Assembly: GCF_004010195.1 (NCBI RefSeq)
Contig: NC_057755.1
Coordinates: 9,826,891-9,890,890 of the forward strand
DNA: 64,000 nt
Source of the DNA: Chiloscyllium plagiosum
Lineage: Eukaryota
Direction of reading: 5' to 3'
The position numbers and the translations under genes were made by a program. A model generated the notes under the pieces. It was not told the DNA's origin. It searched no databases and saw nothing but the letters and a program-made list of their open reading frames with translations. Of this stretch, positions 48,048-64,000 are shown one piece after another. Within the stretch, counting starts at the first letter, position 1. Each line of letters starts with the position of its first letter.

Positions 48048-49619
48048 CTGAGACCGAAGATAAACACAGAGCAAAGGGGTCAGACACAGAACGTACTCCA
48101 ACCTTTCCAGCATGCACAACCCTTTAATGGCCAGATCCAGCTTTAACTCAGGTACAGACGAATTCTCAACATTACCACCAACTAACGTTCCTCATGAATG
48201 ACAACAATAAAATCACTGCAAAGGAAATGCTGCAAATACATCAATGTTCTATTAGAGGTGAACTGCCAACTCAGAGATCTCTTCCCATATCTTCATGTGA
48301 TACATGTTTTTTGAGTAGGGAAAAGATACCCAGACTGGTGTCCATTCCCACACTGAACTTTAACCTCAGGATTAAATGTGACGTATGCAGGTAATATATG
48401 ACCTTCCTGTCAGAGTGAAATAGCGATGTAAAAAGCGGAAACAGACCCTTCAGTCCAACGCATCCATGCCGATCACAGAATGTACTCCTGCATATTTATC
48501 TGCACTGAAATTCATCAGACAATTATCTGTCCATTCTGTACATTCATTAATGTCCACTACTGAATTACAGCTATCAGTGCTGACCTTCCGTCCCAATTTG
48601 GCATCATCACAATTTAGAAAATTGTATTTTTGATTCCAAACTAAGTCATTCTGATTTCTGTGAATACCATTTCCTGCCTCTGCCATTCCGAATAACTAGC
48701 ATTGAATTCTGTTCTTAGCTTTCTGTCCGAAATCAATGAGCTATCCATTGTCACTTGCCCCAGTATTATATTCACTAAAAACTTATTAGTCGATTATGGG
48801 CACCATATCAAAGCCATTTGAAAATGCAGATAAATTACATGTACTATTTAACTGCTGAAGCTCTCTGCCAACACCAAAATTAAAATTGGAAAACAACATT
48901 CAATTTTCACATACATTCTAACTTAATAATCAAGACACTTGAAAATGCAATAGTTATATTCAACACCTCCTGTGTTTAAGGAGAAAGTGAGGTCTGCAGA
49001 TGCTGGAGATCAGAGATGGAAATGTGTTGCTGGAAAAGCGCAGCAGGTCAGGTTCCCTAGATGTTGCCTGACGTGCTGTGCTTTTCCAGCAACACATTTC
49101 CACCTCCTGTGTTTATCCAGCCTCATACTCCTCTCTCTCTACTCAAGATTGTCTGTTAACAAGCTCCTCTCACAGCAAGCAGCTGTCTCCCTGTGGCTCC
49201 CACTCTTCCACACTCATACCCCTGCAAGTCCGCCCCCATCAGCCCACCTCTTTCCCCAGCAACGCAATCCCACTTCCGCCCCAGTCCCTAGGCGTCTCTC
49301 TCCACCCCTGTACTCACACCTCTTCCCCTGACCACTCGCTCTCCCCTTGTGTCCCACAACACACCCTCTCTCCCTACCCCTCCATAACCACAGCTCAATC
49401 CAGTTACCTTTTTCACTCCCACTGTCTCATGCATTGCGTCTCACCGCCCTAAACTTCCCAACCTCACTGCTTTCTCCCATTCAAACATCCAAATCGTCCC
49501 AGTCCTATTTTCACTCCTCTCCCTGCTCACCCTAAACTCCTGCACTTCCCCAAACCGTCTAATCGTCCCCGGCTCGCTCCACGCCCCCACCCATCTCCTC
49601 TGCACCAGACACCACCGCT

Positions 49620-50225
49620 NNNNNNNNNNNNNNNNNNNNNNNNNNNNNNNNNNNNNNNNNNNNNNNNNNNNNNNNNNNNNNNNNNNNNNNNNNNNNNNNN
49701 NNNNNNNNNNNNNNNNNNNNNNNNNNNNNNNNNNNNNNNNNNNNNNNNNNNNNNNNNNNNNNNNNNNNNNNNNNNNNNNNNNNNNNNNNNNNNNNNNNNN
49801 NNNNNNNNNNNNNNNNNNNNNNNNNNNNNNNNNNNNNNNNNNNNNNNNNNNNNNNNNNNNNNNNNNNNNNNNNNNNNNNNNNNNNNNNNNNNNNNNNNNN
49901 NNNNNNNNNNNNNNNNNNNNNNNNNNNNNNNNNNNNNNNNNNNNNNNNNNNNNNNNNNNNNNNNNNNNNNNNNNNNNNNNNNNNNNNNNNNNNNNNNNNN
50001 NNNNNNNNNNNNNNNNNNNNNNNNNNNNNNNNNNNNNNNNNNNNNNNNNNNNNNNNNNNNNNNNNNNNNNNNNNNNNNNNNNNNNNNNNNNNNNNNNNNN
50101 NNNNNNNNNNNNNNNNNNNNNNNNNNNNNNNNNNNNNNNNNNNNNNNNNNNNNNNNNNNNNNNNNNNNNNNNNNNNNNNNNNNNNNNNNNNNNNNNNNNN
50201 NNNNNNNNNNNNNNNNNNNNNNNNN
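49620..50225. other. Assembly gap (N run) with GC-rich flanks
   Basis: Directly visible. Confidence 1.
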
Positions 50226-50230
50226 GCTCC

Positions 50231-50412
50231 TTGGCTGTAACCCCGCCCCCTGGCTGTAACCCCGCCCCCTGACTGTCTGACCCCGCCCACTTGCTGTGAG
50301 ACCCCTTCTTGGGTAGACCCGCCACCCGAATGTGACCCCGCCCCCTTGCTGTTTGACCCCTCCCCTGGTTGTGACTCCGCCCCCTGCCGTGATCTCCAGG
50401 CCTGTCCAATGT
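50231..50412 (-). promoter_or_regulatory. GC-box (Sp/KLF) array with CCAAT box; probable promoter of the CCCH gene
   Basis: About 8 units of 18-21 bp, several with CCCCGCCCC or near matches, CCAAT near 50406; abuts the N gap upstream of the - strand gene. Confidence 0.55.
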
Positions 50413-53400
50413 GGGTCATGACCCTTTCGCACTGACCCTGTACCACCCGTTCAGAAATCGTTATGATTCAATTAATTTTCACTGTGTCACAGTATAAGTA
50501 CACAAGTCAGTGAGTGTTCATCAATTTAAACATTATCCCTGTAGCTTCAACGTCACCCATTCCATATTGCTGAACATTTGCAACATTTAGAAATAAAAAA
50601 TATGCAACTTGTTTTCCAGCATTAAGGACGCAAAGTTTTGGAAAAAAAAATCTAATCTCATTTTTCTAAACTCCAGTTAAGATGTGCCTACTATTCTATT
50701 CCAACGACTTTGCAGTTTTTCTTCAATTAAATAGTACATGTATCCCCCACTATTCAGAAGTAGAGCATTCCTATGAAACCTTTCATAAGCCCTTCTTCAG
50801 GAACGTCGATTCTCCTGTTCCCTGGATGCTGCCTGACCTGCTGCGCTTTTCCAGCAACACATTTTCAGCTCTGATCTCCAGCATCTGCAGACCTCACTTT
50901 CTCCTCAAGAACAATAAGATACTGACAAAGAGTATCCCACACGGCAGTAATGAGATGGCCATGAAAACTGTTGCGTGGTTTTATGGACAGTGTTTGTGTG
51001 TACTTTAATTTAAATAATTTTTAGCAGTTTTTCTTGGTTTAAGTGGCATAAAGCAAACGTTCCAAAAGTAGGGGCTACCTGTACTGTGTGACTTACTCTC
51101 TTCCAAAGTGAGCAACTTATTTTCACTCAGACTCCATTCAACAACTTTTTTTCCCCCAATTAGGTATCCATTCATATCTCTCTGTAAATTGTTTGCACCT
51201 CCCATGCAGCCTGCCTTTCCACTCATTTTCACGTCACCTCAAATTTGGCAACAGTACTTCAGAATCCTTCCTCCAAGTCATTCATACACTTTTGTAAACT
51301 GACCCCTGTGGAACCACACTCAACAACGTGAAAAAATCAGCCTTAGCCCCACTTGGTGGTTCCTGCGCATTAGCTAATTCTCTAACCATACCGATGTACT
51401 ACCTTTAGCTCCATGAGCTCTTATCTTATGACTTAACCTTTTCACGAAATCCCTACAACGTGGAAGCAGTCTATTCAGCCCATTGTGTCCACATCGATTC
51501 CCTAATGAGCACCCCAACAAAACCCATCCTAATGCACCCATTAAGCAATGCCTGTAACCCCACATTTCCCATAGTTAACCCACATAGCCTGTATGTCCCT
51601 GGACACTGTAAACAACTTAGTATGGCCACTCTCCTAATCTACACATCATTGGACTGTCGGATGAAACTGGAACACCTGTAGGAAATCCACACACAGACAT
51701 GGGGAGAAAATGCAAACTCCAAACAGACAGTTGCCTGAGGCTGGAATCAAACCCAGGTACCTGGTAGTGAGGCAGCAGTGCTAACCACTGAGCAATAACA
51801 CCGTAAGGCACAGGAGCAGAAATTAGGCCATTCAGCCTATCGAGTCTGCTCTGCCATTCAGTCATGACTGATAGGTTTTTGAAACCCATTTTCCTGATTT
51901 TGCCCTGTATCTTTTGATCCCTTTGGCAATAAAGAACTCATTGGTCTCTGTTTTAAACATACTCATTGACCTGGCTGCCAAAACCTTCTTTTGGAAAGTA
52001 CCTTGCCAAACACTTTCTGGATCTTCAAATACAACAAAACCACTGGTTCGTCTCTATTCATTCTGCTTGAGACTTCCTTGATATGCTCAAATAACTTAAT
52101 TAGACCCGATGTCTCTTTCATGAAGCCAAGCTGACTTTGTTTTATTAGATTATGATATTTCCAAAGTTTTGCTTCTTTATTAATTCATTCTCATACATTT
52201 CAAACAATTCTGGTTCTCATATGTTTCAATCAACTCACCTCTCTCACCCTTCTATACCACAGCAGATACAATCTTACATGATCGTGTCTTCCCCCTTAAG
52301 ATATTCCTCACCTTCTTGGTATTGGTCCAGTAAAACCTCCCTGAAGTGCACCCAGCACAGTTCCATCCTTCCTGAAATAATGTGATCAATACCATATAGC
52401 ATTGCTAATGTTGTCTCAGCAGTGGCCTTGATGATTGAAAGACACTTTTGCTGTTAATCTCATTCCTGATAAATGGTAACAGTCTATTAGCTTTCTTAAT
52501 TACTTGTTTGATCTGAAAACTGACATTTTGTGATTCTCTTGTGTGTGAATCCAAACCCACTGCTTTCCTCGTAATCTGGACTTTTGTTGCCATTCATCAG
52601 AACTCAAAGTAGCTCGACAATCTAATACATTTGCTGATAACGGTTGGTGTGGAAGTGGGTGTGGGATTGGATAGAATACATGGAAACAGTGCTAGGAGGG
52701 AGAGAGAGAGAAAAAGAGAGAGAGAGAGAGAGTAAGGGAATAGGCCAAGAAAGGGATTGCTCATGATGGAAAACAAGCTGAATCTTTTCTATTTCTACAT
52801 GCTGCCAAAACTCAGTGACAAGTAAACAGTGATCTGAAAACTGCTGGGATTATGCTTAAACTGATGAGCACTTGCACCAACTCATGTATTCATAGTGTGA
52901 TCCAGAGAAAATTTAAAGGGGAGCTGGATAATGAAATGAAGTACTCACTGCTGATTTAAATGATTGAATTAAAAATCACACAACACCAGGTTATAGTCCA
53001 ACAGATTTATTTGGACGTACCAGCCTTTGAAGTGCCGCTACTTTGGCTGCAGGCATTGACTTTCCCAATGCTATATTTTGGAATTGGAAATTACATATGA
53101 AATGCGTCACTGGCGGTGCAGAACCGCGCAAAAAAGACTATGGTTCCATGTGCGAGATTTTTAGAACATTGTGGAGTCCAAAAATACAGACTCTCAGATT
53201 AGGGTGAGAAGGGAAAGATTTAAAAGGGAACTAATGGGCAATCTTTTTATGCAGAGGGTGGTGCATTTATGGAATGAGCTCCCAGAGGAAGTGGTAGAGG
53301 CTGGTACAATTACAACATGTGAAAGGCATCTGTATGGGTAAATGAAGAGGAAAGGTTGAGAGGGATATGCATCAAGTGCTTGCAAATGGGACTGGATTAA

Positions 53401-60000: not shown

Positions 60001-60580
60001 ACCTCCATTAGAAGCAAGCGACCATTTAACCAGACATTTACTAAGGTTGATTCTGTTATGGATTTGCTAAGCAATGTAAATGTTCCAAGCCATCTGTAGG
60101 GGGCTTTGCAGGGTATGCACTCGCCTGGAAACCGGGCTATGAGTTTTCTTATTCACTTCAGGCTTAGGAGGACTCTTTCACTGCCTCGAGCTCACATACC
60201 GGCAGCAACTACAATGGCTTGCCAGCTCCAATCCTAAAGAAAACGTTAATGGCTTGGGCAAGGTTTGGCTTTGTTTTGGGATTTTGGTGTGGGCTGACCT
60301 GTAGTTCGTCTGCTCAGGATATGTCCTGAGGTGTTGCAATTCCTTCAGTCAAATGGTGTCTCTCCCCACCCCACCCCCCCACCCCCCCACACACACACCG
60401 GTTCAGTTGGCCTGGTGTGAGTGTCCACTTCAATTGGCATGTGCTGTAACTGATATGCCCCATTTATCACATTTTCCAATGACACAGTGCGACGTAGTGT
60501 TGGTTGAAGTCTAGTAAGCCTGGGCTTCAGCTAGTAAGCGTTTTGCATGGTTATATCATTGGTCCCATTTTTGTTATCAC

Positions 60581-60742: not shown

Positions 60743-62409
60743 TTTTTTTTTCTTCTCTTAACACCCACACTACTGCCTAACTGTGGTAGTGCTTATTTTA
60801 CCCCCAGCATCTATCTTGTGTATGTGCAGGTGTGAGACACAGTGAGAGACACACGGTGTACGAATCTTTATTCAATTTCAACCACCAGGAAGAAAGGAAT
60901 GACCCGAGTAGTCAGTGACAAGCAGTGCCGGCTCAGTTGGCCTGGTGTAAGTGTCCACTTCAATTGGCATGCGTTTAACTGATATGCCCCATTTATCACA
61001 TTTTCCAATGACACAGCGTGACGTAGTGTTGGTTGGAGATATCGCTGCAAGATCTGAAGGTGGAATTTCGCGACCTGGGTGCGGACGCACACCAGCGACT
61101 GACCACCCTCCTCAGTAGGGAAACTCAGAACCTGTACAGTGACCCAATGCATCTTTTTGTCCCAGAAGAAGTTGACCAACGTTCCCTGGCTGTCAGCGAC
61201 AAAGCCAGGAGGAGGGACCAAAGTAACCAGCCGGTACCACAGCATGGCGGCCACCAGCTGGTTTATGACCAGCACTCGACTCCTGTAAGATAGCACTCGG
61301 AGCAGTCCTGTCCAGCGGCCTAGGTGAGCCGAGACTTTGGCCTCCAGCTCCTGCGTGCTCGCCGGCTAGGATTCCTCAGCCAGGCTGAGGTAGACCCCCA
61401 GGTAGAGGAGATGAGTGAATCTCCAGCTGAACCCCAGTAACTCCTCCGGCAGAGAGTCCACCCACCACGGACCGAACAGTAGTCTGGAACATTTGGCCCA
61501 GGTGATCCTGGCGGAAGATGCAGCCGAGTGCACGGCCTGGCATTCGCACATCCTCCCCAGGTCAGTTGGGTCGGTAAAAGTGAGGAGCATGTCGTCGGCA
61601 TAGGCCGAGAGGACCACCCCGTGCCCACACCGCGCAGAACCAGCCCTGACAACCTCCTCCGCAAGAGGTGCAGGCAAGGCTCCATGCACAGGGAATACAC
61701 GTGGCTGGACAGGGGGCAGCCTTGACGCACTCCTCTCCCGAAGCGAAGGGGCACCGTCAGTGACCCGTCAACTTTAACCAGACACTCTGCTGCAGCGTAC
61801 AAAAGTCGGATCCGGGCGATGAACTGTGTCCCGATCCCAAATGCCCGCACAGTCCCGAGAAGGTACTCGTGATCGACCCTGTCGAACACCTTCTCCTGGT
61901 CGAGAGAGAGGAAGGTGATCGGCAGACCAGCCCGTTGACAGAAATGAATCAGGTCCCAGACCAGATGGACGTTGTCATGTATCCTCCAACCCGGGACCGT
62001 GTAGGACTGGTCCAGGTTAATCATGTGGGCCAGCATGGAAGCCAGGCGAGAAGACAACGCCCTGGCGAAGATTTTGTAGTCCGTGCTGAGGGAGACTGGA
62101 CGCCAGTTCTTCAAAGAATGATGACCACCCTGCACCAAGAAAGGGGCAGCTCTCTGGCATTAAGACACTCCCCCAGGACCTGTGCATAGTCGCTCTCCAG
62201 GATGTCCCAGAATGCCCTGAAGAACTCCACAGTCAGCCCGTCCAGCCCCGGGGACTTGCCCCTCGAGAGCCGATCAAGGGCGCTGGTCAGCTCCTCTAAG
62301 GTGACCGGAGCATCGACTCTTCCTGTGCCCTCCGGGCCGAGCTGCAGCAGGTCCTCCCACAGCACTCGCCGAGCATCCTCGCTGGACGGATCCTGAGAGA
62401 ACAGAGCCG
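60743..62409 (-). mobile_element. 5'-truncated, internally deleted Tx1-clade element carrying the RT domain
   Basis: KSPGLDGLTVEFF, NWRPVSL, DYKIFA, LSLDQEKVFDRVDH, GVRQGCPLS, AYADD, YLGV motifs; same 3' UTR and tail as the copy at 62817. Confidence 0.9.
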
Positions 62410-62415
62410 TATATC

Positions 62416-62640
62416 TTTTTTATCTTTTTTTTTATTTAACCCCCACACTACCACCTAAGTGCGGTAGTGCTTATTTTTTTCAAACCTCTTGTTTACTTTT
62501 TTTTCCTTTTTTTTATTAACCCCTACACTACCACCTAAGTGCGGTAGTGCTTATTTTTGCCCCAGCACCCATGGTGTGTGTGTGTGTGCGCAGGTGTGAG
62601 ACACAGTGAAAGACACAAAGTGCACGAATCTTTATTTTAT
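62416..62640 (-). mobile_element. Two short Tx1 3'-end copies (about 65 bp and 140 bp), each with terminal stem-loop and A tail
   Basis: Repeats of cactaccacctaagtgcggtagtgcttattt near 62445 and 62526, matching 62838. Confidence 0.85.
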
Positions 62641-62680
62641 TTTTTTATTTTTTTGTGGTCCACGGACTCCACAGCGCCAT

Positions 62681-62805
62681 AAGCCTACTGCACCTGGTAT
62701 TCCCAAGCGGTCTCCCATCCAAGTACTAAGCAGGCCTGAGTCTGCTTAGCTTCTGAGATCAGACGAGATCTGGCGTTTTTTTTTCAGACTAGTATGGCCG
62801 TAGGT
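62681..62805 (-). pseudogene. Full-length 5S rRNA-derived copy (retrocopy or SINE head)
   Basis: Reverse complement reads ACCTACGGCCATACTAGTCTG(A)9CGCCAGATCTCGTCTGATCTCAGAAGCTAAGCAG...GTACTTGGATGGGAGACCGCTTGGGAATACCAGGTGCAGTAGGCTT; box A and box C recognisable; expanded A run; no T4 terminator. Confidence 0.93.
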
Positions 62806-62816
62806 CACTCCTGTTT

Positions 62817-64000
62817 CTTTTTTTTTCTTTAACCCCACACTACCACCTAAGTGCGGTAGTGCTTATTTTATCCCCAGCACCCATGGTGTGTGTGTGCGCA
62901 GGTGTGAGACACAGTGGAAGACACAAAGTGGACGAATCTTTATTCAATTTCCACCACCCCGAAGATAGGAAAACACCCGGGTGGCCAGTGACAAGCACTG
63001 CCCTTCACATCAAAGGGCAATGCCATGTGATCAAAACAGTGAAGGGGAGGGGAGGGACTAAATCAAAATAGAGTTGGAGGGAGAAATAATGCACTCCACT
63101 CCCTGCGGCGCCCACCTCTCCCTGATAAACTCCAGGGTGTTGGTGGACATCGCGTGCTCCTTCTCCAAGGACACCTGGGCTCTAACGTAACCACGGAAGA
63201 GGGGCAGGCAGTCAGCCCTAACGACCCCCTCCTCGGCCCGCTGCCTAGACCTGTTAATGGCCAGTTTGGCCAGACCCAGGAGCAGACCCACGAGGAGGTC
63301 TTCAGACCTGCCCTCCCTCCCTCCGTACCAGGTGCCCAAAGATCAGGAGCGTGGGACTGAAGTGCAACCAAAAGCAGAGGAGGAGGTTTTTCAGAAAATC
63401 AAAAAGGGAGTGCAAACACTCACACCCAATATACACATGCTCCACAGCACCACAGAACAAGCAGTTGGGCTGGGAGTCCGTGAACCACCGCAACCTGCGG
63501 TTGCAGGGGACTACTGCGTGCAGCACCCTCCACCCCAGATCCCCGAGAGAAAGGGGGAGGACTTCCGCATAGAGAGCCCTCCACTGGGGATCACCACCGC
63601 CCGGTGGCAAATGGGCACGCCAAGGAAGAAGAGGTGGATGGTGTGCAGCAGCAGTCTATACAGGGCCCGCCTTTTTACATCCTTAAAAGAAACAAAATTA
63701 AAATTCCAGGGGCGGCTCAGGTTGTGGGGCACAGGCTCCCACGGGAAGTACGGGACGTTGGGGCCAATGTGAAATTCCATCCGGGCTGGGGGTGAGCGCT
63801 GACGGGATCCCACCGCACACCTGAGCGTCCTCCAACTGGTGCACTACGTCGGGTCCAAGCACCGCCGTTTTAAGGCGTCGGATGGCGGTGGCCACGTACC
63901 GGACGTCTACCGCTGCCCTGCTCGCTATGTCCAGTGGTAGCGTCCAGCCCAGGCCCCCAGCACCCAGCACGTCCCCGACCCTGGTCACCCTCACCGCCGC
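62817..64000 (-). mobile_element. Tx1-clade non-LTR retrotransposon, ORF2 C-terminus + 3' UTR + A tail (continues beyond window)
   Basis: Frameshifted ORF2 end with DLGWRVLH, CLFCG..HVYIGC zinc knuckle and LLGLAKLAI; stop 63058; AATAAA, terminal stem-loop, A-rich tail. Confidence 0.88.

Follow-up and report, generated by a model that had tools for sequence, protein, structure and literature searches.

Chiloscyllium plagiosum carries a locus at which a complete 5S rRNA sequence stands just upstream of the 3' end of a Tx1-like LINE, and this raises the question of whether the element is a site-specific, non-autonomous SINE that Pol III (RNA polymerase III) reads, or a chimeric retrocopy made by the LINE machinery. 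Both had been put forward in the original prediction. The window, i.e., the whole stretch of DNA that was analysed, comprises 64,000 nucleotides of contig C46, and the assembly contains 3.56 Gb in 101,977 contigs. According to our analysis, the element is best explained (with a probability of roughly 0.7) as a 5S/Tx1 chimeric retrocopy that moved in as a 3' passenger on read-through RNA of a Tx1 array, and a Pol III-driven SINE is unlikely.

All predicted parts were recovered on the minus strand at their predicted places, the positions being read from the sequence. Along this strand, Tx1 copy A is followed by AGAAACAGGAGTG, the complete 5S, 26 nt, an A-rich run and a Tx1 3' untranslated region (UTR); the A tail of this UTR is succeeded by a degenerate stretch resembling the target, by a very short tail and by Tx1 copy B:

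62831..64000, minus strand: Tx1 copy A, decayed, consisting of the ORF2 3' end and the 3' UTR; aligns to the Xenopus Tx1 ORF2
62806..62830, minus strand: A-tail and target copy (AGAAACAGGAGTG); 25 nt equal to the C10 copy, 13 nt equal to the native C7 target
62818-62806, minus strand: AGAAACAGGAGTG, target copy between the tail of Tx1 copy A and the 5S
62816-62806, minus strand: AAACAGGAGTG, target remnant upstream of the 5S
62681..62805, minus strand: complete 5S rRNA retrocopy (Rfam), in sense to the Tx1 pieces, no oligo-T
62655..62680, minus strand: 26 nt, one junction base and 25 nt of Tx1 ORF2, matched in Tx1 loci
62637..62654, minus strand: A-rich run of 18 nt, read from the sequence; the same pattern of piece and A-run follows 24/54 Tx1 tails
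62496..62636, minus strand: Tx1 3' UTR, from AATAAAG (62636) to the stem-loop and A tail near 62496; multicopy tail
62484..62494, minus strand: degenerate target-like stretch, 8/11 bases equal to 62806-62816
62417..62478, minus strand: very short Tx1 tail with stem-loop (hairpin) and A run, a separate array unit (repeat family D2)
60750..62415, minus strand: Tx1 copy B, older and broken, RT fragment and tail (Pfam RVT_1; Xenopus Tx1 ORF2)

Copy A extends beyond the window as far as a 500-N gap (C46:9891442-9891941), located about 1.7 kb upstream of the 5S, and is likely the carrier of the 5S unit. Judging by their sequence, the 25 nt at 62806..62830 were likely carried in from the source locus, and an origin in a local target is disfavoured. 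Near 60744, copy B ends at AAGCAGGAATG, a local target situated within an LTR-like repeat. No tRNA or further Rfam families were detected in the window. A piece of about 110 nt is present twice (60398-60509 and 60928-61038), one copy lying inside Tx1 copy B, where ORF2 sequence is missing. At 49388-50467, overlapping open frames are clustered on both strands with a strong GC skew, and this region is likely a simple tandem repeat.

The LINE of these arrays is, as far as its sequence indicates, Tx1-like, with an ORF2 closest to those of Tx1 elements. A reverse transcriptase piece showed 63% identity to the Xenopus Tx1 ORF2 over 76% of its length (E 1.4e-61), and Pfam RVT_1 was detected in copy B (E 6.8e-20); no Pfam domain was detected in two other pieces of the window, one of which was searched without a frame check. 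A target-like core follows 32 of the 68 tails, and the units are stacked in tandem arrays. Within the arrays L048, L059, L064 and L080, the same 5' junction (target and insert start) tends to be present in several copies, as though the sequence had been duplicated locally or the target duplications were very long. Tx1-8_Crp and Tx1-4_AMi prefer LTR retrotransposons as targets (PMC4494074).

The 5S copy is complete, as had been predicted, but it is not pristine. It matches Rfam RF00001 over model positions 1-120 (86 bits, E 6e-17); compared to a normal gene of the same genome, it has A as the first base, five extra A at positions 22-25 and the substitutions G47A, G71C and C95T. It is an RNA-gene sequence devoid of gene flanks and fused 5' of a truncated LINE, whereas a T run and a spacer accompany the normal genes. 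Normal single 5S genes with the same spacer flanks are dispersed over many contigs, often beside gaps; one 20-mer of the normal 5S has 154 exact matches, representing dispersed units or misplaced array pieces. The absence of an oligo-T after the 5S, and of any T4 until about 61801, proved correct: the first T4 lies at 61804-61801, after 878 nt. In the copies at C7 and C1 a T5 is located at +57/+66, and both continue beyond it; only the window copy reaches a tail without a terminator in between. Its Box A is unchanged; G71C and C95T fall in the internal control region of the 5S, where we assume the limits of IE and box C to follow the Xenopus numbering.

G71C was found in five copies (C1, C2, C7, C31 and C46), against 154 with G, and the A expansion at 22-25 in nine copies. 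Both recur in unrelated 5S retrocopies and are absent from the normal genes viewed; they may reflect error hot spots of reverse transcription or a minor 5S RNA variant. The A expansion was also considered as a mark of lineage and is a weak one, since five of the nine copies are unrelated. Given this recurrence of G71C and of the A expansion, the lineage of the window copy is traced by its shared start together with C95T and the junction.

The 26 nt downstream of the 5S, previously described as being of unknown origin, proved to be coding sequence of Tx1 ORF2. Twenty-five of the 26 bases match ORF2 in 28 of 29 Tx1 loci with 0-4 mismatches (exactly in eight loci), and they encode GAVESVDH within the C-terminal CCHC-type motif. 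At C7 and C1 the sequence past the 26 nt continues as ORF2; the C1 continuation aligns to residues 1164-1242 of the Xenopus Tx1 ORF2 (47.5%, E 8.6e-18). Because the 26 nt run on as ORF2, the core event is a 5S joined to a Tx1 that lacks its 5' part, the fusion point lying about 570 nt before the end of the Tx1. The spacer comparison suggested in the original prediction led to the rejection of a 5S spacer as the source, since normal genes continue with a T run and another spacer. Splicing as an explanation of the missing 440 nt was rejected as well: a GT follows the 26 nt at C7 and C1, but there is no AG acceptor at the join.

The 5S carrying these marks occurs at four places, on C46 (the window), C7, C1 and C10, and it is fused to a Tx1 piece at the first three. 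A search with the junction (best 40 of 358 candidates) showed the copies of C46, C7 and C1 running into the 26 nt, and the exact pattern with the two marker substitutions gave the same three loci; G71C and C95T are common to these three copies, and the start GGAGTG-A is shared by four, adding C10. The exact junction of 5S and 26 nt has two matches only, in C46 and C7, which differ at one position in 151 nt. The full join of 26 nt, A-run and tail was matched from its first base in the window only (best 40 of 1251 candidates). Thus, the genome search with the junction did not bear out a multicopy SINE family, the full join being single-copy and the 5S-26 nt junction occurring twice. The description of the element as a one-off holds for the full join, but not for the 5S/ORF2 chimera, which has been re-copied to four contigs.

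The surroundings of the other three copies differ. At C7, the 5S starts at +1 directly behind a native LTR-like target, with target copies downstream and a 3621-N gap inside, in which its own tail would lie. This target has the rarer G form (95 exact sites, versus 752 with T), which is also present in three of four downstream target cores at C7 and in the C46 and C10 copies; these G-form sites at C7 lend modest support to C7 as the likely birthplace of the chimera. The insert at C10 measures 107 nt and is flanked on either side by a different, local 15-nt target; it consists of 17 nt, an A-run, the foreign target, 5S bases 1-48 and a further A-run; its 25 nt upstream of the 5S are identical to those of the window. 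At C1, a local 16-nt duplication, unlike the target, brackets 3.4 kb composed of Tx1, a 2070-N gap, GGAGTG, the 5S and a Tx1 3' end. The 5S/Tx1 junction of C1 differs from that of C7 and lies about 10 nt away, an offset that needs a second switch or small deletions.

These observations can be arranged into a scenario of four steps. In the first, the 3' part of ORF2 received a full 5S in the same sense, immediately after a Tx1 target, an arrangement visible in the product, and template switching or RNA ligation would have made the fusion. In the second, the chimera would have been born at C7, abutting the native LTR-like target. In the third, an upstream Tx1 RNA would have read through its own A tail and the target copy into the 5S; the resulting sequence is present in the copies, and the transcription is our inference from it. 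Polyadenylation would have occurred at 5S base 48 for C10, 26 nt downstream of the 5S for the window and farther on than the Tx1 tail for C1, and Tx1 would then have inserted each of these RNAs. In accordance with this, the A-rich run at 62637..62654 probably represents the poly(A) tail of such an RNA, whose end lay 26 nt downstream of the 5S. In the fourth step, the window insertion would have taken place at the AATAAA of another Tx1 3' UTR, or would have been joined to it by a template switch, and either course would give the appearance of a 5S head on a Tx1 tail.

Several features of the family are in line with a passenger origin, and the involvement of the LINE machinery, one of the two possibilities originally raised, is supported by the 5S/ORF2 fusion and by the passenger layout at the sister copies. 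An A tail, downstream source DNA and a second A tail lie inside one local duplication at C10, C1 and C5:55.95 Mb. In addition, a target followed by a piece of 15-200 nt and a new A-run lacking the stem-loop was found after 24 of the 54 tails with a target core (16/31 loci), compared to 206 of 5000 background windows for such a piece and A-run. This excess indicates that RNAs ending without the tail are routinely inserted, transduction and short independent inserts being counted together. A poly(A) library yielded 237 reads on tail parts, with T-run loose ends at the tail; they fit polyadenylated Tx1 RNA at the level of the family, or internal priming, and are not attributable to the window copy.

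The search for a donor gave negative results within the assembly: no donor Tx1 was found for the re-copied chimera, no Tx1 lies upstream of the 5S at C7, and no close twin of Tx1 copy A was present among the best 40 of 2801 candidates, the best other copy reaching 90%. A single donor Tx1 for C46 and C1 is not supported, their identity being 92.0% against a family median of 91.0% in a star-like tree (31 sequences, 366-nt region); for C1, the visible upstream Tx1 was compared, because 2070 N hide the element next to its 5S. An unassembled or lost allele would explain the missing donor.

The tail of the window element is likely, from its sequence, a separate molecule from the 5S unit. It differs from the tail of the C1 chimera at several positions, and among 34 other loci, four have an A-run directly before the AATAAAG of the UTR (5 of 84 sites), with no 5S present. 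Target remnants had been predicted on both sides of the element; both stretches exist, but they do not form a pair. With 8 of 11 bases equal, they match too poorly to be a duplication of the same young age as the 5S unit: the binomial p is about 5e-5 if the 0.7% divergence of that unit is assumed, and 0.015 at 5%. Therefore, a unit of 5S and A-run inserted separately from the tail, the case that the original prediction had set against its own proposal, is the likelier origin of the join, and its 5' duplication would be expected at the 500-N gap. The stem-loop folds well when a 61-nt piece is taken from the short tail next to it (z -3.9), whereas for the 126-nt tail another structure is predicted as the best fold (z -0.7).

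The capture of 5S at Tx1 targets is not confined to the lineage of C7. Four further independent captures were found, two on C5 and one each on C15 and C31, and all five, including the C7 lineage, have the sense orientation and start at 5S base 1-4. At C5:62861304-62864324 there is a second 5S/Tx1 chimera, independent and full-length, with another target, another junction and a retained T run. Two copies of it stand in tandem and have their 5' junction in common, a local 12-nt target being present three times around and between them, and this locus (C5:62.86 Mb) is the clear case of a whole chimera within one pair of target duplications. The other captures, all in sense from base 1, comprise about 29 nt of 5S behind a Tx1 target copy at C5:55.95 Mb (in passenger layout), about 50 nt behind a Tx1 target at C15:22.83 Mb (joined to a SINE tail piece) and about 85 nt behind a Tx1 target at C31:38.11 Mb (joined to an LTR-like flank).

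Another six 5S copies (L004, L005, L019, L127, L128 and L130) are fused directly to the head of a tRNA-like SINE with AATCT-repeat tails, at junctions that vary a little. Each may have arisen as a chimera of its own, or together they may form a real SINE subfamily with a 5S head; in the latter case, they would be a better SINE3 candidate than the window element.

Among the alternatives to a passenger origin, an unlikely one is that a whole chimera of the C7 type was inserted with its own tail and later lost about 440 nt of Tx1 by deletion, leaving the A-run at the scar. The order and orientation of the parts fit such a deletion, the join is single-copy, and Tx1 copy A in the same array has several deletions. 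However, the supposed scar is an 18-nt A-rich run like the tails of the family, the join of A-run and AATAAAG recurs at five sites in 4 of 34 other loci lacking 5S, and the tail differs from that of the C1 chimera, the C7 tail being hidden in a gap. An exchange at the DNA level between Tx1 arrays, by gene conversion or ectopic recombination, could also have moved the 5S segment, and we regard it as very improbable. Target and tail sequences are indeed common to the arrays, the 5' junction is locally duplicated in the two tandem chimera copies at C5:62.86 Mb, and the junction and Tx1 part of C1 differ from those of C7, as they would after a crossover; yet the C10 insert has no Tx1 homology around it, ends in an A-run and is bracketed by a 15-nt duplication, and the window copy likewise ends in an A-run. 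Least credible is an assembly error at the join of 26 nt, A-run and tail. The assembly is fragmented (101,977 contigs), and the array, repetitive and rich in gaps, is interrupted some 1.7 kb upstream of the 5S, but a substitution and an A count peculiar to this copy are present, and its layout matches joins typical of the family elsewhere.

The reading as a nascent SINE3, in which a 5S-headed RNA made by Pol III was inserted in trans at Tx1 targets, deserves separate consideration, and we find it improbable. The same low expectation applies to the variant in which C7 served as a master giving a trimmed, adenylated RNA of 5S and 26 nt. In its favour, the C7 copy immediately follows a local target and starts at 5S +1, and the window copy combines an unchanged Box A with 878 nt free of T4. 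A Pol III transcript starts at or inside the 5S and cannot carry sequence upstream of it. Since such an RNA lacks upstream sequence and is expected to stop at T5, the foreign upstream sequence at C10 and C1, as well as the passage of T5 in the long copies at C7 and C1, count against Pol III, as do the single-copy full join and the lack of a duplication pair (8/11). Thus, Pol III read-through producing a site-specific 5S/Tx1 SINE, the other possibility of the original prediction, is not supported by the sister copies or by the window itself. G71C, found in five copies against 154 with G, and C95T also lie in the internal control region, whose IE and box C bind TFIIIA (PMC3123226); single substitutions in IE or box C were judged compatible with function in turtle NOR-5S (PMC8789306). 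There is little reason to expect that the Tx1 arrays, with their five or more sense captures of 5S from base 1, act as a SINE nursery, in which the window copy, having lost the T5 and gained a stem-loop tail, would be a Pol III-readable, target-directed SINE3 at birth, perhaps spreading in other individuals by now.

The passenger origin of the chimera can be compared to known systems. In LINE 3' transduction, transcription reads past the element's own A tail, and downstream DNA is carried along with a new A tail, one duplication enclosing all. The layout of C10, C1 and C5:55.95 Mb, with two A tails around downstream DNA in one duplication, resembles this process; unlike in 3' transduction, what is carried along is the following unit in a tandem array, headed by 5S, and the source allele is not in the assembly. 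In human 5S/LINE-1 and U6/LINE-1 chimeras, a small RNA is located 5' of a 5'-truncated LINE, and they are recurrent with junctions of their own; 5S accounts for 10.5% of 253 chimera candidates (bioRxiv 10.1101/2025.02.02.635956). The chimeras described here likewise consist of a small RNA fused 5' of a truncated LINE, but the LINE is the target-preferring Tx1 rather than L1. According to that preprint, human 5S/L1 chimeras are often antisense and truncated and U6/L1 chimeras do not propagate themselves, whereas the captures here are in sense from base 1-4 and the chimera is found on four contigs, likely as a passenger.

SINE3 has a 5S-derived head and a LINE-derived 3' end (Kapitonov and Jurka, 2003, as cited in PMC4494074 and PMC5786205). 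The window element shares the 5S head upstream of a LINE 3' end, but differs from SINE3, as portrayed there, in having no multicopy unit, no duplication of its own and no sign of Pol III-bounded copies. A start at the head with its own target duplication is a feature of SINE3, and C7 alone begins at a native target. SINEU elements with Tx1-Mar acquired RNA heads by template switching and are true families of shared structure; in PMC4494074, a family is distinguished from a sum of independent chimeras, and SINEU stand on the side of the family, whereas the 5S/Tx1 copies described here do not. Tx1 is not mentioned in the consulted passages of PMC5499810, and no title on a 5S-headed Tx1 element was found, although a named family may exist in Repbase, subscription papers or supplements, which lay outside the scope of the search.

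In conclusion, the window element is likely a further 5S/LINE chimera of a known kind, spread by read-through. It represents a tidy case of a known process outside mammals, in which a target-preferring Tx1 has repeatedly captured 5S RNA, and the tandem arrays likely allow such chimeras to be re-copied without a promoter of their own. The locus thus offers a traceable intermediate between a one-off RNA/LINE chimera and a true SINE family; if the window copy were transcribed by Pol III, the birth of a SINE would be testable on a single locus.
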